64,000 nt of DNA, taken from IMG/VR virus record IMGVR_UViG_3300046355_000236; one strand, given 5' to 3'. The stretch comes from a virus. Taxonomy: Duplodnaviria; Heunggongvirae; Uroviricota; Caudoviricetes. The position numbers and the translations under genes were made by a program. The notes beneath the pieces are model-generated. The model had not been told where the DNA came from and did no database searches. It worked only from the letters and a program-made list of their open reading frames with translations. Shown here piece after piece: positions 32,267-55,555 of the stretch (position 1 is its first letter; each line of letters starts with the position of its first letter).

Positions 32267-32478
32267 TGGCAAGGATCGAAAAGCCTCAGGGCGATATGTT
32301 CAAAGTGGAGTTCACAGAGTATGAACGTGGATGGGGATCAAAGCACTGGGACACTGAGTATTATGACAACGAAGCGGAGGCTCGTCAACGAGCAGTCGAC
32401 TACAACAAGGAGCATAACAACTTGGATTCTGCTCCCGACTGGTATGTCCGTGCTGATTATGCTGGTATGGTGCGGTAA
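32266..32478 (+). CDS. hypothetical small protein
   Basis: Coupled ORF. Confidence 0.35.
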   Translation: MARIEKPQGDMFKVEFTEYERGWGSKHWDTEYYDNEAEARQRAVDYNKEHNNLDSAPDWYVRADYAGMVR

Positions 32479-32672
32479 TGGAGCAGGACTATGATGTTGT
32501 AGTTGATGTCCTGCAAAAGCATTACGACAAGTTGTGGGACATGACAAGACAGAACATGCAGTCTGAGTTCATAGGGATGAACATCATGGATGACATTCGC
32601 CTAAGGCAGATGGATGAGCTTAGAGAAGCGATCTGGATGTGGCAAGAGAAAAAGCTCCATGAAACTAAGTGA
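32478..32672 (+). CDS. hypothetical small protein
   Basis: Coupled ORF. Confidence 0.35.
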   Translation: MEQDYDVVVDVLQKHYDKLWDMTRQNMQSEFIGMNIMDDIRLRQMDELREAIWMWQEKKLHETK

Positions 32673-32985
32673 ACTTCACAGGATTGTCAACCTAACACAC
32701 CGTCCGGGCCATTATGTGGATCCGGACGTAACTATTGCAATCAGCATGCCATATGCTACGATTGGCGCTCATCCTATGGTCAATGTCAAATCAGCATCGC
32801 TAGGGTTTGACTGGGAGAATGGCAAGTTCATAATCTGGCCAGAGGAAAAGCTACAGCATTTCGATGTTGACTTTGCTGCTCAAATGAGTAAAATGCAAAA
32901 GGAGCTTGGTGCGTCTGACTATGAGCGCCGAGGGTTACAGGCCGAGGTCAAGAGACTGAGGAAACTATTGAAAGAGAGCGAATGA
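32659..32985 (+). CDS. hypothetical protein
   Basis: Met16 of ORF 32614. Confidence 0.35.
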   Translation: MKLSELHRIVNLTHRPGHYVDPDVTIAISMPYATIGAHPMVNVKSASLGFDWENGKFIIWPEEKLQHFDVDFAAQMSKMQKELGASDYERRGLQAEVKRLRKLLKESE

Positions 32986-33091
32986 TGTGTGGTGAAAGTA
33001 TTGTGTTGTACATTGTACTTGGCCTGTTCATTGCTGGAATTGTATGGGTGCTGCATCTATTCCATGCAGCAACAAAACGATAGGGAGTACC

Positions 33092-33316
33092 ATGGGACGG
33101 TATGTTGAAGTATACATTGACGAGGACTGGCAAGATGATGTCTCAGATGAGGATCTGATCGCTGAGTGTGATGCCCGGGGGCTCGAAATAGAGGACCCAT
33201 TAGACAAACAGGTCAAGCACATTATTACAGCAATGTGGCTGAAAAGACGACTGGGTGTTGACCATCAGAGCGAAATTGATCAGTTGATCTATTGCGCAAT
33301 TGGAAAGATCATATGA
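33092..33316 (+). CDS. hypothetical small acidic protein
   Basis: Met17 of ORF 33044. Confidence 0.35.
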   Translation: MGRYVEVYIDEDWQDDVSDEDLIAECDARGLEIEDPLDKQVKHIITAMWLKRRLGVDHQSEIDQLIYCAIGKII

Positions 33317-33492
33317 AAATCCTGACAGACGAGCAGATTGCACGGTGGAAGTCAAAGACAACACGGCAGCTCGAGCAAGACCTCAAGAAGGCCATGGAGT
33401 TTGTGCAGGAATACCCTCAGTTTGAGCATTCATTGCACAATGAGTACATTCACTTGCTTAAGCGAGAGATTGCTGAAAGGATTGGACGTTGA
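33313..33492 (+). CDS. hypothetical small protein
   Basis: ATGA-coupled. Confidence 0.35.
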   Translation: MKILTDEQIARWKSKTTRQLEQDLKKAMEFVQEYPQFEHSLHNEYIHLLKREIAERIGR

Positions 33493-33701
33493 ACGAGCAC
33501 ATTAAGAGTTTATCACAAAAGGCTTTGGACTATGCTGCTGAGCAGTATGGTCCTCAACGTCGTGATGAGAAGGTATGGGAGGCATCTGTGTTTGATGAGA
33601 AGTTCGCTGAGCTGATCGTGCGAGCATGTATTGATATCGCTTTGGCCAACGATGATCCATACACTGCTGTGGACATTGGCAACTACTTTGGTGTGAAATG
33701 A
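33489..33701 (+). CDS. hypothetical small protein (paralog family ending YFGVK)
   Basis: Probable TTG start; ..FAELIVRACIDIA..NYFGVK. Confidence 0.3.
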   Translation: MNEHIKSLSQKALDYAAEQYGPQRRDEKVWEASVFDEKFAELIVRACIDIALANDDPYTAVDIGNYFGVK

Positions 33702-33994
33702 AGACGACCAAGCTGGTGCTGAGGACATGGGAACAATGGGAATCTGATGGTTTCCATGTGATAAAGGGCCAAAGAGCTACAGCATACAATGGAAGAAGTC
33801 AAGCGTTGTTCTCATCAGCACAAGTGACAAAGACGATCCATCACAGCTTCGGTGATATACACTATCCACATGGAGAAGTGTTGACTGCTAGTGAACCACA
33901 GCCAAGGACAGTGTACTATGCTGATGGGTCAGGGTATGTTGATTATGGTGGTCCGTGCGGACCGTTGTACTTTGATAGGAATGGCAATACATGA
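33698..33994 (+). CDS. hypothetical small protein
   Basis: Coupled ORF. Confidence 0.35.
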   Translation: MKTTKLVLRTWEQWESDGFHVIKGQRATAYNGRSQALFSSAQVTKTIHHSFGDIHYPHGEVLTASEPQPRTVYYADGSGYVDYGGPCGPLYFDRNGNT

Positions 33995-34133
33995 AAACGT
34001 ATTATGTCGTGTACAAGTCGTACCAGAGGCCAGGACTGGAACATTATGAGGTTGTTGCAGAGAACAAAGCCGTTGCCAGGATGAAGTTTCTGGAAGAGAA
34101 TATCAAGCATGACTACATCATCAAGATCATTCT

Positions 34134-34400
34134 ATGATACACTACAGTAACACAAACAATCCAATTGACTTTCCCAAGGCCAGTGATAAGCCTTTTGTCG
34201 ATCAGATCATTGGTCAGGCATTGGATGATGTTGTCAGCCACACATGGACATCATTACAATACGAACAGGTCACTGATGTTCAGAGGCGAACGATAGAGCT
34301 CGTGGTCAGGGAATGTGCATTGATTGCTGGCCTGATGGAGCTTGAAGGTCGTAAGAGTATTGGAGCTGTTATGTTGGACAGATTTGGAGTACCGCAATGA
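34134..34400 (+). CDS. hypothetical small protein (paralog family ending RFGVPQ)
   Basis: ..ELVVRECALIAG..MLDRFGVPQ. Confidence 0.35.
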   Translation: MIHYSNTNNPIDFPKASDKPFVDQIIGQALDDVVSHTWTSLQYEQVTDVQRRTIELVVRECALIAGLMELEGRKSIGAVMLDRFGVPQ

Positions 34401-34891
34401 TCCGATGGATTGAAAATGTTAGCATGAGTGCTATTCACCTTGGTCACCATAGTGATCTGGGGGATAATTGCTTGCTGATCCGCATTCAGGACCCAGCAAC
34501 GGAGTTCAAACCATCAAAACGTCAGTTCAAGCAAGTGCATTGTTTTGAATTCCTCGATGCAGAGGACTCGGACGGGTTTCCAGATGAGACCAAGATCAGT
34601 GATGATCAGGCAAAGGAAATCATTTCGCTGCTTGAGCATGCACTTGAGAAGCAGATGAACGTGATGGTTCATTGTCATGCAGGGATCTGTAGGAGCGGTG
34701 CTGTCACTGAGGTTGGTACAATGATGGGGTTCACGGCAACGGAACGTTTTCGTCAGCCAAACCTTCGTGTCAAGCATAAGATGATGAAGGCACTCGGATG
34801 GACATATGACTCTGATGAGCCTAAGAAGTCTGTTGGTGGATGGATATCTGATGGTGGCGTGTGGCTGCCAGACAACTTTGGAGTAGAATAA
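34397..34891 (+). CDS. Cys-based protein-tyrosine / dual-specificity phosphatase
   Basis: VHCHAGICRSGAV is the HCxAGxxRS(G) P-loop. Confidence 0.65.
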   Translation: MIRWIENVSMSAIHLGHHSDLGDNCLLIRIQDPATEFKPSKRQFKQVHCFEFLDAEDSDGFPDETKISDDQAKEIISLLEHALEKQMNVMVHCHAGICRSGAVTEVGTMMGFTATERFRQPNLRVKHKMMKALGWTYDSDEPKKSVGGWISDGGVWLPDNFGVE

Positions 34892-35094
34892 TGATCGAAT
34901 TTAGGTATGTCATTCGTAAGAGCAGTGCGACTGCTGAAAAGATCAGGGAGTATGCTAATGAGCATGACATTCCTTTGATGCTGGCCAAGAGAGAATTGGA
35001 AGATGTAACTGATCCAATCCTGCAGTATCGTGTGCTACCCGTTCCTGCATTGTGGCAGGATGTTCAAACTGTTGTGGAGTACCGGAATGAATGA
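34891..35094 (+). CDS. hypothetical small protein
   Basis: Met11 of ORF 34861. Confidence 0.3.
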   Translation: MIEFRYVIRKSSATAEKIREYANEHDIPLMLAKRELEDVTDPILQYRVLPVPALWQDVQTVVEYRNE

Positions 35095-35299
35095 TCAGAT
35101 CTATAAACTTTACGCACGAGCATTTCAAGTGTTTGACAAACGTGATGAAAACTATTACGAAATGATGGCTAAGTTCACAGAGTTGATTGTTGAGGAGTGC
35201 GTTCAAGTTGCCGGACCAGATGATTCGTATACGGACGAGTGGTTCAAGGCAAAAGCAGATTCTGTGGCAAAGATCAAGCAACATTTTGGAATTCAATAA
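35087..35299 (+). CDS. hypothetical small protein (paralog family ending KQHFGIQ)
   Basis: ..FTELIVEECVQVAG..IKQHFGIQ. Confidence 0.35.
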   Translation: MNDQIYKLYARAFQVFDKRDENYYEMMAKFTELIVEECVQVAGPDDSYTDEWFKAKADSVAKIKQHFGIQ

Positions 35300-35469
35300 T
35301 GTCTCAGTTCGTTGTAAGAGAAGTTGAATGGGGTGGTGATGTGGATGGCACTGGTCCTGAGCGTTGGCTGGGCAGGGCATTGGGATGTTTCGACACTGAG
35401 AATGAAGCCTTGGACTTCGTCGATACACAGTGGACTGATTGTCAAGTTGTTGAAGAAGAAGTAAAATGA
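35299..35469 (+). CDS. hypothetical small protein
   Basis: Met21 of ORF 35239. Confidence 0.3.
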   Translation: MSQFVVREVEWGGDVDGTGPERWLGRALGCFDTENEALDFVDTQWTDCQVVEEEVK

Positions 35470-35714
35470 CCGAAGCTAAACCATGTCCATTCTGCGGAAC
35501 AAAAATCGACGTCAACAACCGAGACATCATGTATCCGGCAGGATTTGGTTGGAAGGAAGAAGACGGGCATCGACACTATGTGGACATATATGATGTGCCA
35601 CACGAACAGTGGTGCTATAAGATTGTTTGCCAAGAGCACTATGGCGGATGCTGTGCACAGATGATTGGTGATTCTGTTGATGAAGTTATAGAGAAATGGA
35701 ATAAGCGAGTATGA
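35466..35714 (+). CDS. small Cys-rich (zinc-ribbon-like) protein
   Basis: CPFCG ... CYKIVCQEHYGGCC. Confidence 0.35.
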   Translation: MTEAKPCPFCGTKIDVNNRDIMYPAGFGWKEEDGHRHYVDIYDVPHEQWCYKIVCQEHYGGCCAQMIGDSVDEVIEKWNKRV

Positions 35715-36025
35715 ATGATCAAATCAAAGCCGGAGCTGAGATCCATGCAGGGGATGGTGGATACTCTATTGGCACGAAGGAAGCTCATGATGAATTTGTT
35801 AAAGCACGTAATGCGTCAATGGAGCAGACAGCAATCGAGCAATGGCTGAGTAAGCCACGTCCATGGCCACAGGCATGTGGATGTCTCGGTCCGATCAATG
35901 GTGATCCTGTATGTCCATGTGCAATGCAATGGATGGAGAAGGTTGCCGGGCAATGGTATCAGATTATTGAGCACCATGGTCCGTCTGGCGTTACGCATAC
36001 AGCACAGTTGGTGGAGGTCAAATGA
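35711..36025 (+). CDS. hypothetical protein
   Basis: Coupled ORF; Cys/Trp motifs CGCLGPINGDPVCPCAMQW. Confidence 0.35.
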   Translation: MNDQIKAGAEIHAGDGGYSIGTKEAHDEFVKARNASMEQTAIEQWLSKPRPWPQACGCLGPINGDPVCPCAMQWMEKVAGQWYQIIEHHGPSGVTHTAQLVEVK

Positions 36026-36155
36026 ATGATTTGATGGTAATAGAAGAGGTTGACCAACTTGATGATCTGCCAGAGTATTGTCCGACATGCGGGCTGGAGT
36101 GGAGCGGTACGAGCTGTGGTCTTGATGATTGCGGATGGGTAACAGGAGGTGACGA

Positions 36156-36224
36156 ATGAACGAACGAATCAAAGAACTTGCTAGAGTTATACATTACATG
36201 CAATATGGAGAATATCATGGATAA
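36156..36224 (+). pseudogene. truncated N-terminal remnant of the MNERI.. paralog family
   Basis: atgaacgaacgaatcaaagaacttgct duplicates the start of 36498..36710, then hits a stop after 22 codons. Confidence 0.35.
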
Positions 36225-36501
36225 GCGACTTATGCAGCTGATTCAAGAAACTAAAGGTATACTTCGTAACAAAACAATTACCGTAGATGATTTGAATAGA
36301 GCGTTGGCATGTGCAGAATGGTCTGAGCGGGTTTTACGTGGACAAATATCAAAAGAAATCAGTGAGTTGTTGACCAAGTTTGTTGAAGAAATTCTATTAC
36401 TCAATAAAGAAATTCAAAAAGATATGGACTATATGGCTGCCAGAGATTACTCTGATTGGGTTAGTGATTCTCAGTCTAATTACGATTGCGGGGAACTATG
36501 A
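36205..36501 (+). CDS. hypothetical protein
   Basis: Met10 of ORF 36178. Confidence 0.35.
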   Translation: MENIMDKRLMQLIQETKGILRNKTITVDDLNRALACAEWSERVLRGQISKEISELLTKFVEEILLLNKEIQKDMDYMAARDYSDWVSDSQSNYDCGEL

Positions 36502-36710
36502 ACGAACGAATTCTACAACTTGCTGAACAAGCTAACGTCAATTTTGGTAAAGGCTTAGAATTTGCGGTGGTGTTTGGTGAGCTAGAAGATTTTAAAAAGT
36601 TCGCCGAGTTGCTTGTTCAGGAATGTGCTACAATCGCAGATAAAAACAGCCCGTTGTCATATCCGGATCATGGCATTAAGATTAAAAGACATTTCGGAGT
36701 TGAAGAATGA
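36498..36710 (+). CDS. hypothetical small protein (paralog family ending KRHFGVEE)
   Basis: MNERILQLAEQ..FAELLVQECATIA..IKRHFGVEE. Confidence 0.4.
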   Translation: MNERILQLAEQANVNFGKGLEFAVVFGELEDFKKFAELLVQECATIADKNSPLSYPDHGIKIKRHFGVEE

Positions 36711-36925
36711 ACATCCAAACAGTAGCAGAAAATCTGCGTAACACAATCTCCGGCAAAGAACAATATTTGGTAGCAGTCATTAATGGACTGCAAAGCTCCA
36801 AAGGTGTTGATCGTGTTGTTCTTAAAACTACAAAGGCTATGCTTGAACTCAACATCAACGAACTCAAGCGTGTCTTGCAGGATGTGGAACAGTGTGAAGA
36901 TCAATTAGCCGCTGACGCTAGATAA
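36707..36925 (+). CDS. hypothetical small protein
   Basis: Coupled ORF. Confidence 0.35.
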   Translation: MNIQTVAENLRNTISGKEQYLVAVINGLQSSKGVDRVVLKTTKAMLELNINELKRVLQDVEQCEDQLAADAR

Positions 36926-36937
36926 TAAGGAAATAGT

Positions 36938-37094
36938 ATGAGTCAAATTCTAGTTTGAACAACTTGAGTTAGTAAGCGACACCGAGTCCTTCGATGCGAT
37001 GCCTGAAGGAGCCAAAGACCACTCATTTGGTCGTGTGGTTGCCATCAATCAAGTTGTAGCGGATATCAAAGAACATTTCGGAGTTGAAGAATGA
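36938..37094 (+). pseudogene. frameshifted/truncated member of the ..HFGVEE paralog family
   Basis: ATG MSQILV then stop; a different frame continues ..FDAMPEGAKDHSFGRVVAINQVVADIKEHFGVEE. Confidence 0.35.
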
Positions 37095-37294
37095 ATGTAC
37101 AACAATTGATTGATAAGCTCAAAGAGTATCCAAAGGACAGTATGGTTGTCGTCAATGGGTACGAAGGTGGGGTGAGTGAAGTCAGTAGCATGTCCGAGTG
37201 TAGGCTACGATTAAATGTCAATACTGCATGGTATTATGGGTGTCATGAGGTGAAAGATGATGGCGATACACCTGCTGTGTGGATTGGCGGGTAA
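37091..37294 (+). CDS. hypothetical small protein
   Basis: ATGA-coupled. Confidence 0.35.
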   Translation: MNVQQLIDKLKEYPKDSMVVVNGYEGGVSEVSSMSECRLRLNVNTAWYYGCHEVKDDGDTPAVWIGG

Positions 37295-37402
37295 AGTAAT
37301 TAATTTGTGTGTGACAATGGAATAATTTAATTAATTAATGTCTGAGCGGAATTAATTAAAATAATTGTTGTATGCACATGCGAACCAGGAGATAATTGGC
37401 GT

Positions 37403-37750
37403 ATGAATAATGCTCTTACATCATTTGAATGGTTCGTACTATACATTGTAGTGACGAGTGCCGTCGCTCATGTCCAATGGGTAAAGAAGGCGGCAAGTAA
37501 GAAGAAGACTACAGTACGTAAGCCAGTAGCACAACAGGTAGAAGAGCCACAGCCAAAACAAGCTAAATGCGCACAAACAGTAGAGAATGTGTATAAAGAG
37601 CGATTGATTACCCCTAAGGAGACTAAGGTAAGGGATAGGGTAGTAAAGGTCAATGAGAAGGCAGCACAGTACTACCTTATGCAGAAAGAGATAGACAGAG
37701 GGATGGCCAACTTGACTAGCAAGTATCATAAAGGTTCCCAAGCAAAGTGA
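37403..37750 (+). CDS. small membrane-anchored basic protein
   Basis: N-terminal TM, then Lys-rich segment; ggagataa SD. Confidence 0.4.
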   Translation: MNNALTSFEWFVLYIVVTSAVAHVQWVKKAASKKKTTVRKPVAQQVEEPQPKQAKCAQTVENVYKERLITPKETKVRDRVVKVNEKAAQYYLMQKEIDRGMANLTSKYHKGSQAK

Positions 37751-38391
37751 TGGGAGATCCCGTTTACCTGGCATAGCAGAAAGCCAGTTACCTATACACG
37801 TTACCTGCATCCACTAGAATCCGTTTTACCAGCGTTTTACCCACTCGTCTATAGGATGATGTGGGTTTTCGTTGTTCACATTTAAATACGGTTTTAAACA
37901 GGGTATCGTGACACATTGTTGCTCTAATGCCGGGATAAAAGAAACAATCTTGCTAATCCGCAGGGTATCGGGATAAAGTGTTGCTTTCCAGGATATTCCT
38001 GCCACTATCGGCCGCTTATGTGCTTGGACACAAAAGTACCCACAGCCACGCTCAGAGTAGCACAGGATAGCCACAGTAGCACTTTTGGTTCCAGAAACGT
38101 TCTGGACACAGAGTAGCCCATAGCACTTCTGTGTCCCAGCCGGAGTTGAACACAGAGTAGCCACTAGCACGTTTGGTTCCAGTTCGAGCCTGGACACTGA
38201 AGTCCCATAGCACTTTTGTTTCCCATTCAGATTGAACACAGAATAGCTACAGCCCTTTCTAGCCACACAGCTATAGTTTTAGCAACAGCAATCGTATATC
38301 AAAACATGCAAGCTTGTCAACAGTAAGGTTATTCAAGCGTACAGTTGACAAGGTTATTATTTTGCTGTATGCTGCTGAGTGGGAAGATCCC
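37751..38391. repeat. coding-free repeat region framed by direct repeats TGGGA(A)GATCCC (37751 and 38380)
   Basis: Six GTT(T)(T)ACC copies at 37761-37850, GGGTATCG.. direct repeats at 37900-37990, and five imperfect ~44-nt tandem units (ACAGAGTAGCC.ATAGCACTT.TGT.TCC..) at 38049-38280; no ORF of 60 aa or more on the + strand. Confidence 0.6.
38343..38371 (+). promoter_or_regulatory. sigma70-like early promoter candidate
   Basis: TTGACA-17 nt-TATGCT with upstream duplicated gtcaacagtaaggttatt motif. Confidence 0.35.
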
Positions 38392-38595
38392 AAAACTCGG
38401 CCGCAACTATTATTAGTCACTCTCGCTGTCCATCCCCAGATTGCCTGTTCGAACGCATGTCAGTAGCATCTCATAGATCTGAGGGTCAGTCAACATGTAA
38501 ATAATGTCCTTCAATTCCGTATGGATACTTTGTAGCCATGTTGTCAGAAGTTCAAAAACCATGATGATAGACGCAACAACCACAGGAGTGTTTCT

Positions 38596-38781
38596 ATGAC
38601 GATCGATCAAATCAATTCAATTGCACGTCTACAACGGATGGAACGACAGTTGTATCAGACAATCACCAAAACGATTCCGATGCGGAATATCGATCAGGCA
38701 AAATGGATGCACGAACAACTCACTACCATACAACAACACATCCGTCAACAACAACAATATTGTGCTTACAAACAAGGCTGA
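38596..38781 (+). CDS. hypothetical small Gln-rich protein
   Basis: ORF only. Confidence 0.3.
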   Translation: MTIDQINSIARLQRMERQLYQTITKTIPMRNIDQAKWMHEQLTTIQQHIRQQQQYCAYKQG

Positions 38782-38850
38782 TACTTCTAACCTACGTTGA
38801 CCAAGTTCAGAATCCATCAGACAATCATCACACATTAACAGGAGAATCAC

Positions 38851-39213
38851 ATGATCAATACTACTCACCCCTTCCCCAGCGTCAACAACAACAACCTGCA
38901 GAAGGTTCTACACGATCGTGACACTATTCGCGCACTCGCTGTTCAAATTGTCGGTGCGCAAGTAGAGGCACATTTGGACATGATTTCGGATGCTGGCACT
39001 ATTGAGTACGGAACGTTCCAAGAAGTAGCAGGATGTATTCAAGGGGCAAAAGAGAGTGTAAAGGACTACATTGCCGATCTGTTGGCAGACTTCAGTACTA
39101 CTCTTTACGAAGAAGTCGCTAAGGTGAAAGTGGAAACAAAAGCGTTCATTCAGAAACCGACAGCAGATGGTCGGATCGACATCGATGCAGAAGTGGATGT
39201 GTATATCGACTGA
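38851..39213 (+). CDS. hypothetical protein
   Basis: ORF with aggagaa SD. Confidence 0.4.
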   Translation: MINTTHPFPSVNNNNLQKVLHDRDTIRALAVQIVGAQVEAHLDMISDAGTIEYGTFQEVAGCIQGAKESVKDYIADLLADFSTTLYEEVAKVKVETKAFIQKPTADGRIDIDAEVDVYID

Positions 39214-39232
39214 GAGTCAACAGGATCAAATA

Positions 39233-39478
39233 ATGCCCTTCTCTTTTGGGAGGGTATTGTTGGACACTGTTGTCCGTTTGGAGAAAAGCATGACCGAATT
39301 CACACATGACGATTATGAGGAGTTTCTGAACGACATCCATCCTGAGGTGGTTGTCTTGGGATCGAAAGTAGGGTACGGATCGATTGCACGTTCTGTTGAA
39401 CCGATTGGCTTTGTAGAGTCTTTCAATCAATATGTCAACAGCTTCGATCAATACCCTTCACAAACCAACGCTTATTAA
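39233..39478 (+). CDS. hypothetical small protein
   Basis: Met23 of ORF 39167. Confidence 0.35.
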   Translation: MPFSFGRVLLDTVVRLEKSMTEFTHDDYEEFLNDIHPEVVVLGSKVGYGSIARSVEPIGFVESFNQYVNSFDQYPSQTNAY

Positions 39479-39563
39479 ATTAACAGTTGACCAAGTTTAG
39501 AAACTGTTGATAATAGGACGTACTGCAGTAAGCAGTGATTCAAAAACCTAAATGGAGTTTATC

Positions 39564-40196
39564 ATGACAGCAGCAATCGCACAAATGGCAGCAACTTTGA
39601 CCACCGACAAAACCCCTGCGAAAAAGACTCGCAAACCTACGGCGAAGAAAGTTGAAACCAAAAGTGTTACGAACGAAGTGGCAATCAACCCTGTGGCTAT
39701 TATGGAGTCGTTGGGGTTGGATGTTGACGGTTCAGTGTCCAAAGCAGTCAACGATTTGGGGATGTACTTCAACGAATCTGAAAACAAACTTGCTAGTGCC
39801 AACACAATCATCACTAGTTTGGGTGGCACTGAAATGTCCAACGAACTCGAAGCGGACATGATGGCAAAGGCTCTGATTGAGCAAGTAATGAAAACAAAAG
39901 AGTCATATTCGGCAGAAGTGGCAGTGACGAAAGCTACTGAGAAAGTAGCACGAGTGTTGAACAATATGCCAGAACTGAAAGTAGCAAAGGAAGTCACAGA
40001 AGTGCCTACTACTACCCCATCAGGACGTGCGAACAAAAACAACAACGAGAAGAAAGCTAACGCTAAAGTGATCTACGATCGCATGAATGACGGTACTTCT
40101 AGCCAGTCTGCTATCGCAAAGCAGATCGCAAGTGAACTTGACATCACGTTTGCTAACGCTTTCTACTACGTGTCACGAGTGTTCGGCAAGAAGTGA
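39564..40196 (+). CDS. Ala/Lys/Thr-rich protein (abundant structural or DNA-associated protein candidate)
   Basis: ggag SD; followed by a strong 10-bp-stem hairpin terminator at 40208-40238. Confidence 0.45.
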   Translation: MTAAIAQMAATLTTDKTPAKKTRKPTAKKVETKSVTNEVAINPVAIMESLGLDVDGSVSKAVNDLGMYFNESENKLASANTIITSLGGTEMSNELEADMMAKALIEQVMKTKESYSAEVAVTKATEKVARVLNNMPELKVAKEVTEVPTTTPSGRANKNNNEKKANAKVIYDRMNDGTSSQSAIAKQIASELDITFANAFYYVSRVFGKK

Positions 40197-40207
40197 TACT
40201 AGTTAGT

Positions 40208-40238
40208 TACCTCCCCTGCAGACAACCTTGCAGGGGAG
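40208..40238 (+). terminator. rho-independent terminator hairpin
   Basis: ctcccctgcag-acaacc-ttgcaggggag. Confidence 0.5.
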
Positions 40239-40705
40239 TAACGACAAGGACCAACCAATGTTGAAACCAATAGTGTCACTACTCGAAGCATTCTCTAACA
40301 CATGGGAGTCACTCATGCAAGTCGTTGAATGGATTGGACTGAACACAGAAGTGCTACTGACCAAGCTATTCATTCATGAGTAAGCGTACATCAGAACCCC
40401 CTGCAGGACAACACTAAAAACAAGTGTATTCTGTAGGGGGTTATAGCCATATGGGTGCTATAGGGATACCCACCCCGGAGAGGGGTTTTTAAACCAAATA
40501 TTATGCATGGCTGTAGATGAATTTCTTTCCGCTCAGGATAGCTCAGCACGCCCCCCGAAAGTTCCCGCGTTTCTCTTCCCGCGGATCTCAGAATTTTTTT
40601 TCCCGCAAAATCAGTAAAATCCGAAATCCACACGGGGGCGGAAATATACGCTATATGTGGCCGACACGTCCATAGAAATTTTTTTTGTAAAAAATTATGA
40701 AAATA

Positions 40706-40734
40706 ACGGTTGCCTGTTGTTTAGAGTTCTGATA
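40706..40734 (+). promoter_or_regulatory. sigma70-like promoter candidate upstream of the DUF932-like gene
   Basis: TTGCCT-17 nt-TACAAT, preceded by TTCCCGC direct repeats at 40555-40610. Confidence 0.35.
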
Positions 40735-40774
40735 CAATAAACGTTCTTTCAACAAACTCGTATAGGATGTTATT

Positions 40775-41725
40775 ATGGCACACATGGTAGAAACAATGGC
40801 ATATGCAGGTGAAACTCCTTGGCACGGTCTTGGTGTTCACGTTCCGGCAGACTTGTCGCCAGCTCAGATGCTTGAGAAGGCAGGCCTCGATTGGACGGTA
40901 GAGAAGGTTCCTGCATTTGCAGAGATTGGTGGCGTCAAGAAGAACGTTGGATGGTCCGCACTTGTTCGTAGCACCGATCAGAGCGTCCTGTCTGTCGTAT
41001 CCAATGATTGGAATGCAGTGCAGAACCATGAAGCGTTTGAGTTCTTCCATGAGTACTGTGCAGCAGGTGATATGGAGATGCATACTGCAGGCTCTTTGCG
41101 TGACGGGCAAGTTGTGTGGGCGCTTGCTAAGATCAAGGAATCGTTTGAGCTGTTCAAGGGCGACCAGGTCGATTCATACTTGCTGTTCACCAACCCTCAT
41201 AAGTTTGGCCAATCCATCGACGTGCGGTTTACTCCTATCCGCGTTGTGTGCAATAACACACTGACTCTGTCACTCGAGCAGAAAGCAGACCGTGTGGTCA
41301 AGAAAAGCCACCGCACTGCATTCGATCCCGCTCAGGTAAAAGAGCAACTGGGGATTGCAACGGATAAACTTGCCAAGTACAAAGAGATGGCAGCATTCCT
41401 TGGCAGCAAGCGTTATACAGAAGGATCGCTGTCAGAGTACTTCAACAAGATCTTCCCCGTCCTTGCATATAACAAGGAAAAGGGCCCTCAGCGCAAACAA
41501 CTGTCCAAGTCCGCCTCTCGTGCACTCGAAATCATTGACACACAACCTGGTGCTGCATTCGCTCAGGGTTCGTGGTGGCAAGCATTCAACGCTGTGACGT
41601 ACCTGACGGATCACGAAATTGGCCGCTCTGCCGATAGCCGTCTGCAGTCTGCATGGTTTGGTGCCAATAAGAACGTCAAACTGAAGGCTCTGGAAACTGC
41701 AGTTGAATTTGCGGAGGCAGCATGA
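40775..41725 (+). CDS. DUF932-like phage/plasmid protein (TIGR03299-like)
   Basis: N-terminus ..GETPWHGLG is typical of the family; 316 aa. Confidence 0.5.
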   Translation: MAHMVETMAYAGETPWHGLGVHVPADLSPAQMLEKAGLDWTVEKVPAFAEIGGVKKNVGWSALVRSTDQSVLSVVSNDWNAVQNHEAFEFFHEYCAAGDMEMHTAGSLRDGQVVWALAKIKESFELFKGDQVDSYLLFTNPHKFGQSIDVRFTPIRVVCNNTLTLSLEQKADRVVKKSHRTAFDPAQVKEQLGIATDKLAKYKEMAAFLGSKRYTEGSLSEYFNKIFPVLAYNKEKGPQRKQLSKSASRALEIIDTQPGAAFAQGSWWQAFNAVTYLTDHEIGRSADSRLQSAWFGANKNVKLKALETAVEFAEAA

Positions 41726-41958
41726 CATATTACACAGACGAAGGTGTCCACCGGGACGCAGCAGTACGGAAAGCTGTCCGTAACCCATCAGCTTTCCCTC
41801 ATCCACACTCGCAACAACAAAGCGGGATGACGCTACGCGATTACTTTGCGGGGCAATGCATGCAGGCTTTGCTTACAAGGGGCGATGATACTAATCGCCC
41901 GGCTATCGCAGAATGGGCATACATGATGGCAGATGCAATGCTTAAGGAGCGAGCATGA
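41722..41958 (+). CDS. hypothetical small protein
   Basis: ATGA-coupled. Confidence 0.35.
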   Translation: MTYYTDEGVHRDAAVRKAVRNPSAFPHPHSQQQSGMTLRDYFAGQCMQALLTRGDDTNRPAIAEWAYMMADAMLKERA

Positions 41959-42242
41959 CCAAAGACAAAGCCCTTGCAAAGCCTGTGGCGTGGATAAACG
42001 CAAAAGGTGATATGACTTACTTGCATGGCCCGTACAATAACGATGACAGGCCACTCATTTACGGCGACATACCGCTCACAGCACCTGTGTCGCTGACCGA
42101 CCTGGAAAAGGACGCAGCAGCTCTTTTGTTCGCTCTGCATGATGCGTGGCCATATGTCCATCAGTGGTGCACAATTGAGTCTAAGAGGAAGTCTATTCTG
42201 GCGCTGATGCGCAAACACGGAGATTTTGCGGACCTCGCTTAA
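41955..42242 (+). CDS. hypothetical small protein
   Basis: ATGA-coupled. Confidence 0.35.
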   Translation: MTKDKALAKPVAWINAKGDMTYLHGPYNNDDRPLIYGDIPLTAPVSLTDLEKDAAALLFALHDAWPYVHQWCTIESKRKSILALMRKHGDFADLA

Positions 42243-42301
42243 AAAAATCGGTGGGCACCGGCTGATTATTACCTATAGATATTGATTTTCAGTGTAGTGA
42301 C

Positions 42302-42958
42302 ATGAATATTACCAAGTTTCCAGTGCTAATCTTATCAGCCCCAAGGACAGGAAGCACTCCTCTGATGCAGTACATACAAAAACACTGCAATGAGGACGTG
42401 CCTTTCTTCATGGAGCCGACTACAGGCAACTGGCAGCCGGGCGTTTCCCACTGGTCTACTGGCAAAGTAATGGATGAATTTATGGCAACTGCCACAACTT
42501 CTCATAAATTCATCGTCAAAGACCACATCCATACGTTTTCAAAGCACGATCAACATATACAAAACCTTCTGTTATCAGATTCAACGTTTAAAATCCGACT
42601 ACAACGACGCAATTTTGCCGAACAAGTGGCGAGTCGGTACATCGTGTGGTGTAGGAATGAGTGGCACTACACGGAAAAAACTGTTTCTACAGATTACGAA
42701 CAGCCAATTCCACTGAGTGCTGACATAATTTTACGAATTTGCAGCTTCATACATGCAATAAATGAGCAGCTTCGCGAAACAGATATAAATTTTGACCTGG
42801 ATTTGTACTACGAAGATGTGTTGACATCGTGTGACTTAGACCAGTCAGGGCTTTTGGCGACTCCAAAACCTAAAAACTACCAAGAACTACTGGATTTTAT
42901 CAAATTCCAAATAGAGCACGCCTGGCCGTCTCATAGTACACGTCACCTTCGTTTATAG
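42302..42958 (+). CDS. sulfotransferase-like protein
   Basis: LILSAPRTGSTPL resembles the 5'-PSB PAPS-binding loop (PKxGTT). Confidence 0.5.
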   Translation: MNITKFPVLILSAPRTGSTPLMQYIQKHCNEDVPFFMEPTTGNWQPGVSHWSTGKVMDEFMATATTSHKFIVKDHIHTFSKHDQHIQNLLLSDSTFKIRLQRRNFAEQVASRYIVWCRNEWHYTEKTVSTDYEQPIPLSADIILRICSFIHAINEQLRETDINFDLDLYYEDVLTSCDLDQSGLLATPKPKNYQELLDFIKFQIEHAWPSHSTRHLRL

Positions 42959-50745: not shown

Positions 50746-50819
50746 TGGTGCGGGGTAAGGGAATCGAACCCTTAACTAAACGTTGGCAACGTCTGATTTT
50801 ACCGTTAAACTAACCACGC
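50746..50819 (-). tRNA. tRNA-Gly (anticodon GCC), CCA encoded
   Basis: Hand-folded: acceptor GCGTGGT/ACCCCGC (one mismatch), loop TTGCCAA, T-arm AAGGG-TTCGATT-CCCTT. Confidence 0.7.
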
Positions 50820-50822
50820 ATG

Positions 50823-50846
50823 ATGGCAGGGGATACGTCCCCTGCC
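50823..50846. terminator. hairpin (possible bidirectional terminator)
   Basis: ggcagggga-tacg-tcccctgcc, 9-bp stem. Confidence 0.4.
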
Positions 50847-50851
50847 TTTAC

Positions 50852-52270
50852 TTAGGTCAACGCATAGCGATCGACCATAACTGCCTTAAGCATGATGCCT
50901 TGTGGAGTGAATTGTTCCGTGTTGGAAGACAAGACAGCTTTCACAACTGCTGGGCTAAACCCAGACACAAGCGCCACACCGGACTCGTTTGCCTTTACAG
51001 GTACGTTGTCCTTAGCGTTCAGGTTCCAGAACACAATGGCAGGAACCTTGTAGCCAGCTTCTGCAAACTTACGCTTGATCATCTGCATTGCAGAGTCATC
51101 GTACGTTGCGCACTGGTTGAATTGCATGTCTGACAGGATCAGCAACATTTCTGGCATCTCTGCTTGAGGAACGTTTGCATCTACAGCAGTCTTCAAGATC
51201 TTTGCCATAGCCTTGTTCAGGTTAGTGGACATATTCCAAGAAGACTTAGACATTTGCTGGACCTTCTGAACAATGTTGCCCTTCAAGTGCAACAGCTCTG
51301 GATTGTCAGAGAAAGTCAGGAACGTGTCCTTGAACTTACCCTTGTTCTTATCTGCCAGGTACAAACCAAGCGAGATAGCAACATCCATACAGGTCACAGA
51401 ACCAGAACCACCAGCTGGGCAGCTCATAGAGCCGGAAACATCAACCAAAGGCAGAATGTTTGCATCCCCAACGTAGTTAGGCAGAGCTTCCCATTGCTTT
51501 GCAATGTGATCCAACTCGGTCTTACCGTAGTTGTTAGACATATATCCGTTGCACATGCCTTTCAGCACGTCGTATGGATACACAGCCCCTGCGTTAACCT
51601 TGACGCCTGCTTCGCCCTTAACGAGCTTAGCAACGTATTCAGCAAACTTCGTACCGTGACGAGTAAACGCCTTCTTGTAACGAGCAGATGCTACGGATGG
51701 CACATGGTTGTAGTTAATATCATCCCACTTACCAGCACACATTTGCTGTTCGACCACATTCGTCAGATTAACCAACGACTTACGGTAGAACTTTGGCGAC
51801 ATGCCGAAGAAGGTACGAATCTCTGCGGCCAGAGGGCCTTGACGAGGTGTCCACTTTGCAGCCAAGCCATTCTTCTCACGAAGAGCATCACCTAACATGG
51901 TGAAAGCCTTAGCCTTCAGATCCTTATCTTCAAAAACAAAGATGTCATCCCAGCGACCGATTTCTGGCGTCTTGGCCAGCAATGCTGCTGCAGCATCCTT
52001 ATCGTGCTTTTCCAGATACTTTAGAATCTGACGGTACAACGCACGTTCACCAGATCCACCACGTGCGTCACGTGCCCATTGAGCAATACGCAATGCAACG
52101 TCTTTGTCTTCGACGTATGCGGCTACAAAGTCCTTGGTAATATCCTTACCACGGCTTGCACCGATCTTGAAAAACAAGTCTACACATGCATCTGCAGTGG
52201 ACTTGCGAGCCTTCATACCGTTAGTGGTACGAGCTTCTTGGTTCTTAACAGCTTCTACGAATGTTGACAT
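50852..52270 (-). CDS. Ro60-like protein (TROVE-like N-terminal domain + C-terminal vWA domain with MIDAS)
   Basis: MIDAS VDVSGSMS..; N-terminus TTNGMKARKST..LFFKIGASRG resembles the Ro60 TROVE signature FLCFGSEGG. Confidence 0.5.
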   Translation of the reverse strand: MSTFVEAVKNQEARTTNGMKARKSTADACVDLFFKIGASRGKDITKDFVAAYVEDKDVALRIAQWARDARGGSGERALYRQILKYLEKHDKDAAAALLAKTPEIGRWDDIFVFEDKDLKAKAFTMLGDALREKNGLAAKWTPRQGPLAAEIRTFFGMSPKFYRKSLVNLTNVVEQQMCAGKWDDINYNHVPSVASARYKKAFTRHGTKFAEYVAKLVKGEAGVKVNAGAVYPYDVLKGMCNGYMSNNYGKTELDHIAKQWEALPNYVGDANILPLVDVSGSMSCPAGGSGSVTCMDVAISLGLYLADKNKGKFKDTFLTFSDNPELLHLKGNIVQKVQQMSKSSWNMSTNLNKAMAKILKTAVDANVPQAEMPEMLLILSDMQFNQCATYDDSAMQMIKRKFAEAGYKVPAIVFWNLNAKDNVPVKANESGVALVSGFSPAVVKAVLSSNTEQFTPQGIMLKAVMVDRYALT

Positions 52271-52280
52271 AATGAACTCC

Positions 52281-52400
52281 TTTTCAAATCAACAGGTTAA
52301 ACTTTTTGCTAAGCGGGTGTGCTACCATTACACTACTAGTCGGAATCGAACCGATCCACCTGCGTGGGTTTGCATTAAAGAGATTGCGGAACTTAACCTA
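52281..52400 (-). ncRNA. E1: tRNA-like module (T-arm, then D-arm) inside a 7-bp stem, directly upstream of the Ro60-like gene; Y-RNA (YrlA-like) candidate
   Basis: Minus-strand RNA GCAGGUG-GA-UCGG-UUCGAUU-CCGA-CUAGUA-GUGU-AAUGGUAGC-ACAC-CCGC, flanked by UUUAGGUUAAG ... GUUUAACCUGUU; tail runs into the Ro60-like start codon. Confidence 0.5.
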
Positions 52401-52675
52401 AATTCAGCAGATTGGTTATCATTGAGGCTATCACGGCACTCAGCCAGATTCGGGCTATCTTTATGGTGATTTTTGTACTTGCTGTACCCAATCTAAAATC
52501 AACAGAGTAGTTTCCTTCTTTTTGTTTTACATGAGAACACGAAACTCATGTCTACCATACGTGTTAACGTATACAACCTTCAAAGCCCATACAGGCTCCA
52601 GTTGCATACCACCTTGGTAAGCCGTTACTGGAATTGCTCCCAGTTAGTTTTGTTTGCTGAACCTACTCTAAAAAC
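52401..52675 (-). ncRNA. structured leader with nested complementary motifs
   Basis: UUUUUAGAGUAGGUUCAGCAA at 52654-52675 pairs with CUACUCUGUU about 190 nt downstream on the RNA; several hairpins between them. Confidence 0.3.
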
Positions 52676-52702
52676 TCTCGATGACTCAATTATCTGTGCT
52701 TT

Positions 52703-53227
52703 TCAGATTAGAGTCAACTGTTTAAAAATATCTTCAAGCAAAATAGGTCTAAAATCTGTTTGCTCTACGCAAGCACAGAAGTACCAAGGATCAGGGTTTA
52801 CACCCCACTTGTCTTTGACCACATTTGCGTGCAAGTGACCGTGCACGTTAGCCTTGAAGCGGCCTTTGCTTTCCGTGTGAATGGGAATGTGACTAAAGAT
52901 GACGTTGTTCATCACATGGTAAGCTCTAATGTCCCGAAAATGTTCTGTATATTCTTCGAGACGGAAAATATCGTGGTTACCTTTGATCAGGACCTTGTCG
53001 CCATTCAACCTGCTAAGCGTTTTAAGTGCCTTTCGGTTAATAACAACATCACCCAAGTGATAAACCTTGTCGCCAGGACGAACAGTTTCGTTCCAACGCT
53101 TAATCATTTCTTCATCCATTTCTTCTGGCGTATCCCAGGGACGAAGCTTTGTTCCATCATCACGAAGGAACTTACACACACCGGCGTGGCCAAAGTGTGT
53201 GTCGCTAACTACGAATGTCGCAGCCAT
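52703..53227 (-). CDS. calcineurin-like metallophosphoesterase
   Basis: VVSDTHFGH, GDxxxR and GNHD motifs. Confidence 0.65.
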   Translation of the reverse strand: MAATFVVSDTHFGHAGVCKFLRDDGTKLRPWDTPEEMDEEMIKRWNETVRPGDKVYHLGDVVINRKALKTLSRLNGDKVLIKGNHDIFRLEEYTEHFRDIRAYHVMNNVIFSHIPIHTESKGRFKANVHGHLHANVVKDKWGVNPDPWYFCACVEQTDFRPILLEDIFKQLTLI

Positions 53228-53234
53228 AATAATC

Positions 53235-53426
53235 TCACTTTTTAATTAGGGGATTTTCTGTATTGTCGTACAGACTGAGTTTTTCGTTTTCTCTTACCAT
53301 TGCAGTAAGAGCCTCTTCACGCTTTTTCTTTTCTAGTCGTGATTCGCCAAAGATGCGTGTGTGACCTTCATCATATGCTTTGATATTTGTTGGTCGTTGG
53401 CTATCACCTTTTCCACCATCACTCAT
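53235..53426 (-). CDS. hypothetical small protein
   Basis: ORF coupled to the phosphoesterase gene. Confidence 0.35.
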   Translation of the reverse strand: MSDGGKGDSQRPTNIKAYDEGHTRIFGESRLEKKKREEALTAMVRENEKLSLYDNTENPLIKK

Positions 53427-53516
53427 AATAATCTCCTGGTGGTACTAGAAGGTAACGATCCTTCCTGTCAGGCTTATGAGACCCGTGCATATCCATCTAT
53501 GCTATAGTACCGTTAT

Positions 53517-53590
53517 TGGATGCGGGTGACGGATTCGAACCGCCGATGCTGCGAGCTTATGAGACTGCAGTGGTGACCTCCCTACCCGCG
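53517..53590 (-). tRNA. tRNA, initiator-like (C1xA72 mismatch, CAU in loop region); fold non-canonical
   Basis: Acceptor CGCGGGT/ACCCGCA + U + CCA, T-arm GGCGG-TTCGAAT-CCGTC; anticodon stem not resolvable by hand. Confidence 0.45.
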
Positions 53591-53597
53591 TAAATTT

Positions 53598-53671
53598 TGG
53601 TGCCCCTTGACAGAATCGAACTGCCGTAACCTGATTACAAAACAGGTGTAATACCATTATACTAAAAGGGC
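53598..53671 (-). tRNA. tRNA (anticodon undetermined; 9-nt loop UUUUGUAAU)
   Basis: Acceptor GCCCTTT/AAGGGGC, stem ACCTG/CAGGT, T-arm CAGTTCGATTCTG. Confidence 0.55.
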
Positions 53672-53676
53672 AAAAT

Positions 53677-53752
53677 TGGCTGGCCAACCTGGGCTCGAAC
53701 CAGGGACATTTTGATTAACAGTCAAACGCTCTACCAACTGAGCTATAGGCCA
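53677..53752 (-). tRNA. tRNA-Asn (GUU)
   Basis: D-arm GCTC-AGTTGGTA-GAGC, anticodon arm TTTGA-CTGTTAA-TCAAA, T-arm CCTGG-TTCGAGC-CCAGG. Confidence 0.75.
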
Positions 53753-53790
53753 ATATCTTGTATTATATAGTCGACCCGTTAAAAGTCAAC

Positions 53791-53865
53791 TGGTGGATGG
53801 TACTGGGATCGAACCAGTGACCGCTTCCATGTCAAGGAAGTATTCTACCGCTGAAATAACCATCC
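53791..53865 (-). tRNA. tRNA-Val (GAC)
   Basis: Perfect acceptor GGATGGT/ACCATCC; anticodon arm CTTCC-TTGACAT-GGAAG. Confidence 0.75.
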
Positions 53866-53869
53866 ATTT

Positions 53870-53944
53870 TGGTGCCCACGAAAGGACTCGAACCTTCACT
53901 CCGTCGATTATGAGTCGACCGCTTCACCTTTAAGCTACCTGGGC
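53870..53944 (-). tRNA. tRNA-Met or Ile2 (CAU), elongator type
   Basis: D-arm GCTT-AAAGGTG-AAGC; anticodon arm GTCGA-CTCATAA-TCGAC. Confidence 0.75.
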
Positions 53945-53949
53945 ATCTC

Positions 53950-54027
53950 TGGTGCGGCCAATGGGATTCGAACCCATACTGTACAGATTTTAAGTCTGTT
54001 GCCTCCTACCTATTGCGCTATGGCCGC
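53950..54027 (-). tRNA. Leu-anticodon tRNA (UAA), atypical: short variable arm, enlarged D region, A73
   Basis: Perfect acceptor GCGGCCA/TGGCCGC; anticodon arm ACAGA-CTTAAAA-TCTGT; near-identical body to 54301..54377. Confidence 0.55.
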
Positions 54028-54028
54028 A

Positions 54029-54137
54029 AAACCATATTAAAACACACTGCTCACTATCTTTATGTACACTATTACATAGTGGGTTGCATATTGTTCGTGT
54101 GTGCCATGCAACTAGCGCCTCACAGTGTGTTTTAATA
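54029..54137 (-). ncRNA. spacer with perfect 19-bp terminal inverted repeat (long hairpin, RNase III-like substrate candidate)
   Basis: accatattaaaacacactg ... cagtgtgttttaatatgg, with inner palindromes cactat..atagtg and ttgcat..atgcaa; the stem includes the CCA end of the next tRNA. Confidence 0.5.
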
Positions 54138-54214
54138 TGGCGCGCCAAGAGGGATTCGAACCCCCGACATGCGGTGTAGAAGACCGCTGTTCTATCCAGC
54201 TGAACTATAGGCGC
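54138..54214 (-). tRNA. tRNA-Arg (UCU)
   Basis: D-arm GTTC-AGCTGGATA-GAAC; anticodon arm GCGGT-CTTCTAC-ACCGC. Confidence 0.7.
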
Positions 54215-54218
54215 AAAT

Positions 54219-54292
54219 TGGTGCTCTCGTCAAGAATCGAACTTGAGTTACATCCGTACCAAGGATGTGTAATGCCATTATACTACAAGAGC
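54219..54292 (-). tRNA. tRNA-Thr (GGU)
   Basis: Anticodon arm CATCC-TTGGTAC-GGATG. Confidence 0.7.
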
Positions 54293-54300
54293 ATTTATAT

Positions 54301-54377
54301 TGGTACCCACAGCGAGATTCGAACTCGCACTGTACAGATTTTGAATCTGTTGCCTCCTACCTATTGCGCTATGTGGG
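54301..54377 (-). tRNA. Leu-anticodon tRNA (CAA), atypical short variable arm, A73
   Basis: Perfect acceptor GCCCACA/TGTGGGT; anticodon arm ACAGA-TTCAAAA-TCTGT. Confidence 0.55.
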
Positions 54378-54594: not shown

Positions 54595-54596
54595 TT

Positions 54597-54686: not shown

Positions 54687-54693
54687 AATATTC

Positions 54694-55186: not shown

Positions 55187-55194
55187 ATTATTCT

Positions 55195-55548: not shown

Positions 55549-55555
55549 ATAAAAA

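Follow-up and report, generated by a model that had tools for sequence, protein, structure and literature searches.

A conserved gene-free segment between two early operons of an uncultured T4-superfamily phage as a putative nucleoprotein hub

Multiple direct sites of 17-22 bp characterize iteron origins such as R6K gamma, P1 oriR and the lambda ori, and the centromere sopC of the F plasmid is built from a 43-bp repeat that occurs 12 times in tandem and includes, in each copy, a SopB site formed by an inverted repeat. Type III antitoxins are specified by tandem arrays (ToxI, 36 nt x 5.5; CptI, ~45 nt), of which a phage mimic, pseudo-ToxI, is known, and short-repeat arrays lie beside the terminal repeat of T7, while hexamer arrays belong to P1 pac. 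For phages of the T4 type, origins and early-control regions are poorly defined at the sequence level, and the role of the repeats at oriE is unsettled (PMC3016281). The origins oriF and oriG span ~100 bp and combine a MotA-dependent middle promoter with a clear A+T-rich unwinding element and an R-loop primer (PMC3016281), and at oriE the transcript of an early-type promoter runs against the neighbouring genes across short direct repeats, with an annotated primer RNA directed against gene 5 (PMC3016281; T4 record). Here a gene-free region is described that lies at positions 37751-38595 of a 64-kb stretch of IMG/VR virus record IMGVR_UViG_3300046355_000236; the whole stretch is called the window and provides all coordinates that carry no other label. 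A sequence-only reading had covered the left two-thirds of the region (37751-38391).

Located between two early operons that both read rightward, the region appears to be a conserved control hub devoid of genes and is read, with modest confidence, as a cis-acting nucleoprotein hub. This reading is favoured because a ~17-nt motif repeated either way, invariant short motifs and drifting spacers resemble the sites of proteins on duplex DNA. Both repeat families of the region would be iterons, at which sequence-specific proteins bind the DNA duplex, with five copies of GTT(T)ACC and the motif TAGCCACTAGCACTTTTG as candidate duplex sites, and a predicted leftward promoter, P(-), probably transcribes across both families against the direction of the neighbouring genes. 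At a rough probability of 0.35, the hub would serve as a transcription-primed, iteron-bearing origin of the T4 oriE kind. In such an origin the early P(-) transcript would hybridize within or past the iteron array, the phage RNase H would trim it into a leading-strand primer, and an iteron-bound protein would help to open or mark the site. An iteron origin or protein-binding array had been among the functions offered by the sequence-only reading, and it now leads on account of the invariant motifs, the drifting spacers, the recurrence in other phages and the leftward promoter, although it is unproven.

The phage of the window is a large, uncultured member of the T4 superfamily. It encodes homologues of T4 RNase H and gp32, and the gp32 proteins closest to its own, which belong to Stenotrophomonas phage DLP_6 and to T4-like cyanophages, are ~52% identical. 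Three more lineages, with 90%, 90% and 71% identity (contigs L002/L003, L004/L005 and L006), were reached by searching with the protein of the 115-amino-acid (aa) gene to the left of the region, and a conserved 120-aa neighbour led to a fourth, L064, which contains the right half only. These 3-4 close relatives give low power for covariation; the wider comparison comprised 12 lineages that have the core of the leader downstream of the hub, and 1.4 Mb of fetched loci. The Logan contig L001 is identical to window positions 32403-42750 and runs straight through the hub, and its source gene caller left 37751-38850 empty; a contig of the Joint Genome Institute (JGI) with the 115-aa gene measures 169,610 bp. 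Searches of isolate phages by megablast, blastn and tblastn gave no match to the region, its flanks or the 115-aa gene at the DNA or protein level, and the 44-nt leader core likewise had no match among isolate phages. IMG/VR, searched with the flanking proteins and a consensus of the tandem array, gave no match either, and a 16-mer match in L007 lies inside a gene and was set aside as chance.

The modules of the hub are as follows, with divergence given relative to L004.

37751-37761, plus strand: left repeat TGGGAGATCCC, adjoining the stop codon of the 115-aa gene; not a functional repeat
37762-37841, plus strand: five direct GTT(T)(T)ACC(T) motifs within 73 nt, at 37762, 37787, 37800, 37823 and 37834; divergence of the GTT(T)ACC array 0.17
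37839-37876, plus strand: predicted rightward intrinsic terminator, ACCCACTCGTC-TATAG-GATGA-T-GTGGGT followed by TTTTCGTTGTT; divergence of the hairpin 0.00
37877-37960, no strand assigned: near-invariant non-coding block of ~85 nt with TTTAAATACGG (37881-37891), CAGGGTATCGTGACACATTGTTGCT (37899-37923) and AAAAGAAACAATCTTGCTAATCC; divergence 0.11 (0.106)
37961-38015, no strand assigned: neutral spacer, which holds a second, non-conserved GGGTATCG..GTTGCT copy; divergence 0.455
38016-38262, no strand assigned: tandem array of ~5.5 units of 42-45 nt, supported by Tandem Repeats Finder (TRF), repeat families and unit alignment; divergence 0.14 for the 44-nt array and 0.045 for 38016-38059
38263-38290, no strand assigned: neutral spacer between the array and the -10 element of P(-), the inner part of 38251-38309; divergence of 38251-38309 0.49
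38291-38320, minus strand: predicted sigma70-type promoter P(-), TTGACA-18-TACGAT, pointing into the array
38345-38373, plus strand: predicted sigma70-type promoter P(+), TTGACA-17-TATGCT; divergence of the promoter pair 0.20
38377-38398, plus strand: 5'-terminal stem-loop of the P(+) transcript, GAGT-GGGA-AGA-TCCC-AAA-ACTC, containing TGGGAAGATCCC, -7.8 kcal/mol
38420-38459, plus strand: leader core CTCTCGCTGTCCATCCCCAGATTGCCTGTTCGAACGCATG, the right end of the hub, near-invariant in 12 lineages and on IMG/VR contigs of 15-322 kb; divergence of the leader 0.24

The whole gene-free region is present and collinear in every close relative found and is as well conserved as the flanking genes; in the window the hub is single. 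That the region is coding-free, as had been claimed from its letters, is borne out by the relatives: no open reading frame (ORF) is conserved, since each ORF of 37751-38595 that reaches 30 aa either is interrupted or shifts frame in L002 or L004, or else shows non-synonymous changes only. A 146-aa minus-strand ORF at 37826-38266 and other small ORFs were discarded on this ground, and in a 34-aa ORF overlapping 37877-37960 all changes are non-synonymous and long runs are without synonymous change. Since the ORFs that are still open change non-synonymously and long stretches contain no synonymous change, the constraint is placed at the level of nucleotides. The flanking genes diverge at four-fold sites by 0.14 from L002 and by 0.45 (0.451) from L004, and the spacers 37961-38015 and 38251-38309, drifting at about this four-fold rate, are by the same measure internal neutral controls. 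Judged by the aligned relatives, this comparison shows the hub to be ancestral in the window lineage and its motifs and modules to be under purifying selection at the nucleotide level.

The tandem array of ~44-nt units noticed earlier was recovered by TRF at 38106-38247 with a period of 44, 3.3 copies and 68% matches, and unit alignment extends it to four full units at 38060-38234 with degenerate ones on both sides, ~5.5 units over 38026-38262 in total (degenerate U0 38026-38059, U1 38060-38104, U2 38105-38148, U3 38149-38192, U4 38193-38234 and a partial U5 from 38235). A full unit consists of ACACAGAG, a composite site TAGCCAC(n)TAGCACTTTTG, TTCC and 12 unit-specific nucleotides. The consensus has 2 matches against 0 expected, and odd and even units are more alike among themselves, which gives a super-period of ~88 nt. 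Units are 44-78% alike overall; orthologs share 80-89% and paralogs 57-77% identity, and the unit-specific 12 nt diverge by 0.56 between paralogs and by 0.137 between orthologs. Because orthologous units are closer than paralogous ones, the array must be old and each unit individually maintained; L004 has one extra 44-nt unit. The composite site, TAGCCA-n-TAGCAC-TTT, measures ~17-19 nt and occurs once per unit in four units. At least 10 copies in both orientations are found in L097, three of them in tandem at 17 nt; relative to the promoters and the leader, the orientations in L097 are 5+2, and in L008 and L010 the orientation is opposite to that of the window, outside the P(-) transcription unit and past a terminator. 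Sites in both orientations therefore favour recognition on duplex DNA over a single RNA. An imperfect inverted repeat, ACACAGAGTAGC...GCACTTCTGTGT, is well formed in U2 only, and the small hairpin CCAGAAACGTTCTGG of U1, which had been pointed out earlier, folds with -7.5 kcal/mol. Hairpin arrays of the type CCAAAC-N3-4-(C/T)TTTGG, with a period of 15-23 nt, lie upstream of a promoter at L008 500-632 and L009 4095-4245 and resemble the U1 hairpin in style.

The second repeat family, the GTT(T)(T)ACC cluster, is likewise real, but contains five strict copies instead of the six that had been counted. In 200 Markov-1 simulations of the window no stretch of 100 nt exceeded 3 copies, so that the cluster is beyond chance; the whole window holds 27 + 18 copies, and three of them at 18403-18475, inside a gene, were treated as a chance cluster. 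Across four lineages, variable columns number 0/35 within the motifs against 18/56 within the spacers (Fisher p = 6.5e-5), and in L006 copies 3 and 4 are set further apart by an insertion of 11 nt. All clusters of at least three GTT(T)ACC copies in the 1.4 Mb of fetched loci are placed upstream of a copy of the leader, on its strand; they belong to the window lineage, L121 (4 copies), L155 (5) and L145 (5, spaced 11-14 nt). Because the genes upstream of the clusters are unrelated between lineages, the cluster is assigned to the hub and not to the 3' end of one gene. On its 3' side the cluster is succeeded by a hairpin and TTTAAATRCGG in the window and likewise in L121 and L155, and AATAATTAATT-type runs are seen inside the clusters of the latter two phages. 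The predicted terminator, a stable hairpin with a U-run at the end of a transcription unit as in rho-independent termination, lies 89 nt past the stop codon and ends the operon holding the 115-aa gene. Its plus strand folds with -17.5 kcal/mol (z = -4.2), compared to -10.8 on the minus strand, where there is no U-run; it has 0 substitutions relative to L002 and L004 and is invariant in 4 lineages, and homologous terminators with a TTCGTYGTTA tail are present in L008 and L009. As for the pair of GGGTATCG..GTTGCT units reported earlier, both exist (37899-37923 and 37961-37985, 84% identity), but only the first is conserved.

Each of the two predicted promoters has 10/12 matches, 16-18-bp spacing and a conserved position. 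The sigma70-like promoter that had been placed near 38343 corresponds to P(+) and is conserved in the relatives; it was found in 8 of the 12 lineages, with the end of its -10 element fixed 52 nt upstream of the leader core (44 in L121 and L155), and the promoter scan found none at the usual spacing in L009, L145 and L010. P(-), accepted with at least 5/6 matches in the -35 element and a valid -10, occurs in 10/12 lineages, that is, in 7/8 of those with P(+) and also in L009, L145 and L010; L097, for instance, has TTGACT-17-TATAAT, L008 and L009 share TTGACT-17-GATAAT, and the score reaches 11/12 in L097 and L145. In L121, L145 and L010 the leftward promoter at this position is followed by leftward protein genes, which supports P(-) as a real promoter. 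The -35 elements of the pair form a 9-bp inverted repeat (38312-38320 and 38344-38352), the symmetry of which is preserved by a paired change in L004, from CTTGTCAAC/GTTGACAAG to CATGTCAAC/GTTGACATG; GTTGACA is the usual form of early promoters in the window.

These promoters raise the question of whether the arrays act in transcription control alone, as operator or upstream sites that set the activity or timing of the early promoters or insulate the operons, with no role in replication; this is rather doubtful. Two strong predicted promoters have the arrays 60-600 nt upstream, in a conserved layout, the -35 repeat keeps its symmetry, and L121 (2050-2066) and L155 contain a perfect palindrome, TCCTACATTGTAGGA, which is made by the motif TTGTAGGAAA and immediately precedes a further promoter; the terminator and promoters by themselves already indicate an operon boundary. 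However, promoters of the T4 early type are not known to depend on site-specific regulators, the GTT(T)ACC cluster lies past the terminator at ~500 nt from the promoters, ~600 nt of constrained DNA is much for promoter control, and no regulator gene was recognised nearby. If the region is no origin, operator or upstream sites controlling the two early promoters would be the simplest account of the arrays.

The leader (38377-38460) consists of a variable 5' hairpin and a core of ~40 nt, CGCTCT(C/T)GCCGTCCATCCCCAGnnTGCCTGTTCGAACGCATG, and is carried by L002, L004, L008-L010, L064, L077, L094, L097, L121, L132, L137, L145 and L155. Its 5' hairpin is kept with other sequences, GGGGC-TTA-GCCCC in L145 and GGG-N7-CCC in L010, and has the form GGGA-GGA-TCCT with G.U in L009 and L097. 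The reading frame of the core is not conserved, and the leader has no match in Rfam; with its boxA-like CGCTCT(T/C) it may be of the antitermination type. Further downstream, 38524-38580, located upstream of the ribosome-binding site of a 61-aa ORF, resembles L010 3793-3850/5309-5357 and L011 2859-2916/4375-4423, where the likenesses sit upstream of two other small genes of distant relatives. These stretches may be copies of one intergenic cassette and call to mind the promoter-stem-loop cassettes in hyperplastic regions of T4-type phages.

Since P(-) is conserved and in the window lineage and L097 reads straight into ORF-free arrays, the hub could also encode a leftward early non-coding RNA of at least 270 nt, whose body would be the 44-nt array and which would possibly continue through 37877-37960, acting as a sponge or decoy for a host protein or nuclease or as a mimic of a type III antitoxin. 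This is a less probable reading. Like a discrete gene, the array is under even constraint up to neutral spacers on both sides, its consensus fold is more stable on the minus strand (-75 compared to -51 kcal/mol), and its 44 nt x 5.5 resembles type III antitoxin arrays, which are likewise tandem, non-coding and, as here, directly downstream of a promoter. By contrast, no Rfam match was obtained even at E <= 10, the fold z-scores are just -2.2 and -2.4 on the two strands, and among the 3-4 sequences a compensatory change affects 1-2 of 68-88 predicted pairs, with a slightly unfavourable covariation term. Changes of the G.U type favour the plus strand in some hairpins and the minus strand in others, no minus-strand terminator follows the array, and relative to P(-) the orientation of the core motif is mixed or opposite in the phages L097, L008 and L010, of which the last two have it past a terminator. 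The structured RNA locus, one of the functions proposed at the outset, is therefore kept as a rival without positive support, as there is no Rfam match, covariation or terminator and the orientation varies.

The version in which the array mimics a host antitoxin is further disfavoured because no host counterpart was seen: 185,579 bacterial genomes and JGI metagenomes contain no similar array, a degenerate unit pattern giving 18 matches in the genomes and 32 in the metagenomes, all single, at chance level and without extended similarity, and a first metagenome scan with a 25-mer giving none. Different from type III antitoxin arrays, there is also no adjacent toxin gene, and the units are not near-identical. 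An abundant early leftward RNA from P(-) that acts as a tandem-repeat decoy, each unit offering the same ~30 nt of single-stranded sequence beside a unit-specific hairpin, is improbable; if true, it would titrate a defence nuclease or an RNA-binding protein of the host and give phages an equivalent of the type III antitoxin arrays for which no partner in the host is known. The idea of a tRNA-like or Y-RNA element, suggested by the T-arm-like TCCAG-TTCGAGC-CTGGA of U3 and by a Ro60-like gene of the phage, was dropped, as ARAGORN and Rfam found nothing in the region and no acceptor pairing is possible. A match of 14 nt, ACACAGAAGTGCTA, between the minus strand of U2 and 40343-40356 was treated as chance (p ~0.1) and is missing from the array of L004.

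More distant phages with the same hub were found because the leader core is nearly invariant; their hub layout is the same and their flanking genes are unrelated. The DNA between the GTT(T)ACC cluster and the promoters is lineage-specific: it is the 44-nt array in the window and leftward genes in L145 and L010, whereas twelve tandem copies of the 10-nt CCCTGCGAGC occupy the hub of L155 (10870-10990), and L121 has CCCACAATACAAAAT-type repeats (1180-1310) together with a leftward gene. The leader core is preceded by just 53 nt in the locus of L137 (1-113, on a 322-kb contig) and by 73 nt in that of L094 (1-133, on a 142-kb contig); the contig may end there, the assembly may have broken at a repeat, or the start may be a boundary of storage. 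These starts, and irregularly spaced same-strand short repeats that adjoin strong early promoters, would be compatible with a packaging or concatemer-junction signal, where the repeats mark the site of action of a terminase or processing enzyme. Such a signal is very unlikely, however: phages of the T4 type package by headful without fixed ends, the contigs of the window phage run straight through the hub, there is no terminase gene nearby, and the two starts may be artefacts of storage or assembly.

The sequence-only reading had also taken the 11-12-nt repeats at the two borders, TGGGAGATCCC and TGGGAAGATCCC, 630 nt apart, for a target-site duplication. This fails because the left copy varies in L002, L004 and L006, the variants in relatives being TGGCAGATCCC, TGGGAGATCGCC and TGGGATATCTC, and because the right copy is the leader hairpin and conserved as such. 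Pairs of 10-mers (at most 1 mismatch, 300-1000 nt apart) number 20 in this 1.4 kb, compared to a mean of 17.5 in shuffles, so that the pair is at chance frequency. Comparison of the junction after the 115-aa gene revealed no empty site, all close relatives carrying the collinear segment; no inverted repeat joins the segment ends, and as the segment has no ORF it has no transposase. A gene degraded in this phage was the other possibility to be weighed, and distant relatives (L121, L145 and L010) do have leftward genes at the position of the array; yet the array has no tblastn similarity to them, keeps no ORF and diverges by 0.14 compared to 0.45 at neutral sites. Since it is under purifying selection at the nucleotide level, it is not a decayed gene. 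An inserted mobile element with such a duplication, or a decayed protein gene, is accordingly extremely unlikely.

Returning to the origin of the oriE kind, the likeness to T4 lies in the kind of phage, a T4-superfamily member with RNase H and gp32, and in an early-type promoter with a transcript against neighbouring genes across short direct repeats: P(-) (38320-38291) is directed into the array (38262-38016), and the genes on either side occupy the plus strand. Evenly spaced repeats are matched by the GTT(T)ACC copies of L145 at 11-14 nt. The T4 repeats, GTTGAAGGTAAT every 24 nt (NC_000866 79402-79569 = L160 4903-5070), differ in that they lie inside gene 5 and encode a beta-helix, whereas the repeats described here are non-coding and form at least two families, one embedded in 44-nt units; in addition, no repEA/repEB-like genes were recognised in the window phage, and there is no DNA or protein homology to the oriE or repEA/repEB region. 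TTACCT is shared by the reverse complement of T4 GTTGAAGGTAAT and by GTTACCT of the hub, on the opposite strand, which is probably coincidental. With oriF and oriG the hub has in common a promoter with non-coding DNA directly downstream and an RNase H for R-loop processing, but the promoter is of the sigma70 early type and the downstream DNA has just 50-62% A+T.

Multiple copies of a conserved site, as in iteron origins, are found in both repeat families, namely the ~17-19-nt composite site in four units (at least 10 copies in L097, in tandem at 17 nt) and the five GTT(T)ACC copies, and drifting spacers between conserved sites are a further likeness. In contrast to those origins, the copies of the window are 44 nt apart within larger constrained units, no adjacent rep or initiator gene was recognised, and neither a flanking AT-rich region nor recognisable DnaA boxes were seen. 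The tandem ~44-bp units with an imperfect inverted repeat also recall sopC, with the difference that the inverted repeat is well formed in one unit. The scanned ORFs of the window include no parA/parB-like genes, and a lytic phage of the T4 type is not known to need partition.

Several points weigh against the hub as an origin. No marked A+T-rich unwinding element lies by the arrays, the A+T content being at most 65% in 60-nt windows over 37750-38400, and the nearest stretch with 78% A+T (37318-37375) is located beyond the 115-aa gene. No initiator or DNA-binding gene was recognised nearby; the small neighbours have no Pfam or PHROG assignment, and the predicted fold of the conserved 120-aa neighbour (predicted local distance difference test score, pLDDT, 82.6) has no PDB match at E <= 0.001, a sequence search of PDB likewise yielding nothing meaningful. 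The cumulative GC skew has its maximum near 38-41 kb, which would mark a terminus and not an origin; the skew is uninformative as an origin test because it is confounded by transcription. The model also shares an uncertainty with T4 itself, as the role of the oriE repeats is unproven (PMC3016281) and these repeats are coding. Furthermore, the 235-nt array is constrained evenly, including the unit-specific 12 nt, which exceeds what sites plus spacers need and fits an RNA or a multi-protein complex. The close relatives compared also number only 3-4.

The cumulative skew rises to ~38 kb and is flat from 38 to 42 kb although genes are on the plus strand until 42.9 kb, with the change of slope at the hub. 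Few 60-nt stretches of the window are as rich in A+T as 37318-37375, which precedes the 115-aa gene and contains inverted repeats of TAATTAATT in nested arrangement. To the right of the hub, a conserved 41-aa ORF (MLKPIV...FIHE; 40259-40384), which includes the 14-nt match mentioned above, is also present in L004; it is followed by a gene-free region of 390 nt with strong hairpins at 40391-40445 and 40452-40492, and then by a DUF932 gene. Other genes of the window encode a nicotinamide phosphoribosyltransferase and the Ro60/TROVE-like protein (50852-52270), for which Rfam found no Y-RNA. A block of 31 tRNA genes occupies the minus strand at 50746-61207, one of them with an 8-nt anticodon loop (58226-58301, 'atac'); a tRNA-Sec-like Rfam match at 54697-54784 has no ARAGORN call, and a permuted tmRNA of the beta-proteobacterial type lies at 60795-61207.

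Should the hub turn out to do no more than separate two operons and carry regulatory sites, it would be an ordinary finding. The comparison isolates a compact non-coding set, consisting of GTT(T)ACC clusters, a 17-19-nt TAGC composite site, back-to-back early promoters and a near-invariant leader, and this set is common to an uncultured clade of large phages (contigs of up to 322 kb) despite unrelated surrounding genes. For a group of phages whose origins and early-control regions are so poorly defined, it provides targets that can be mutated and a sequence signature by which the hub can be found in metagenomic phage genomes.

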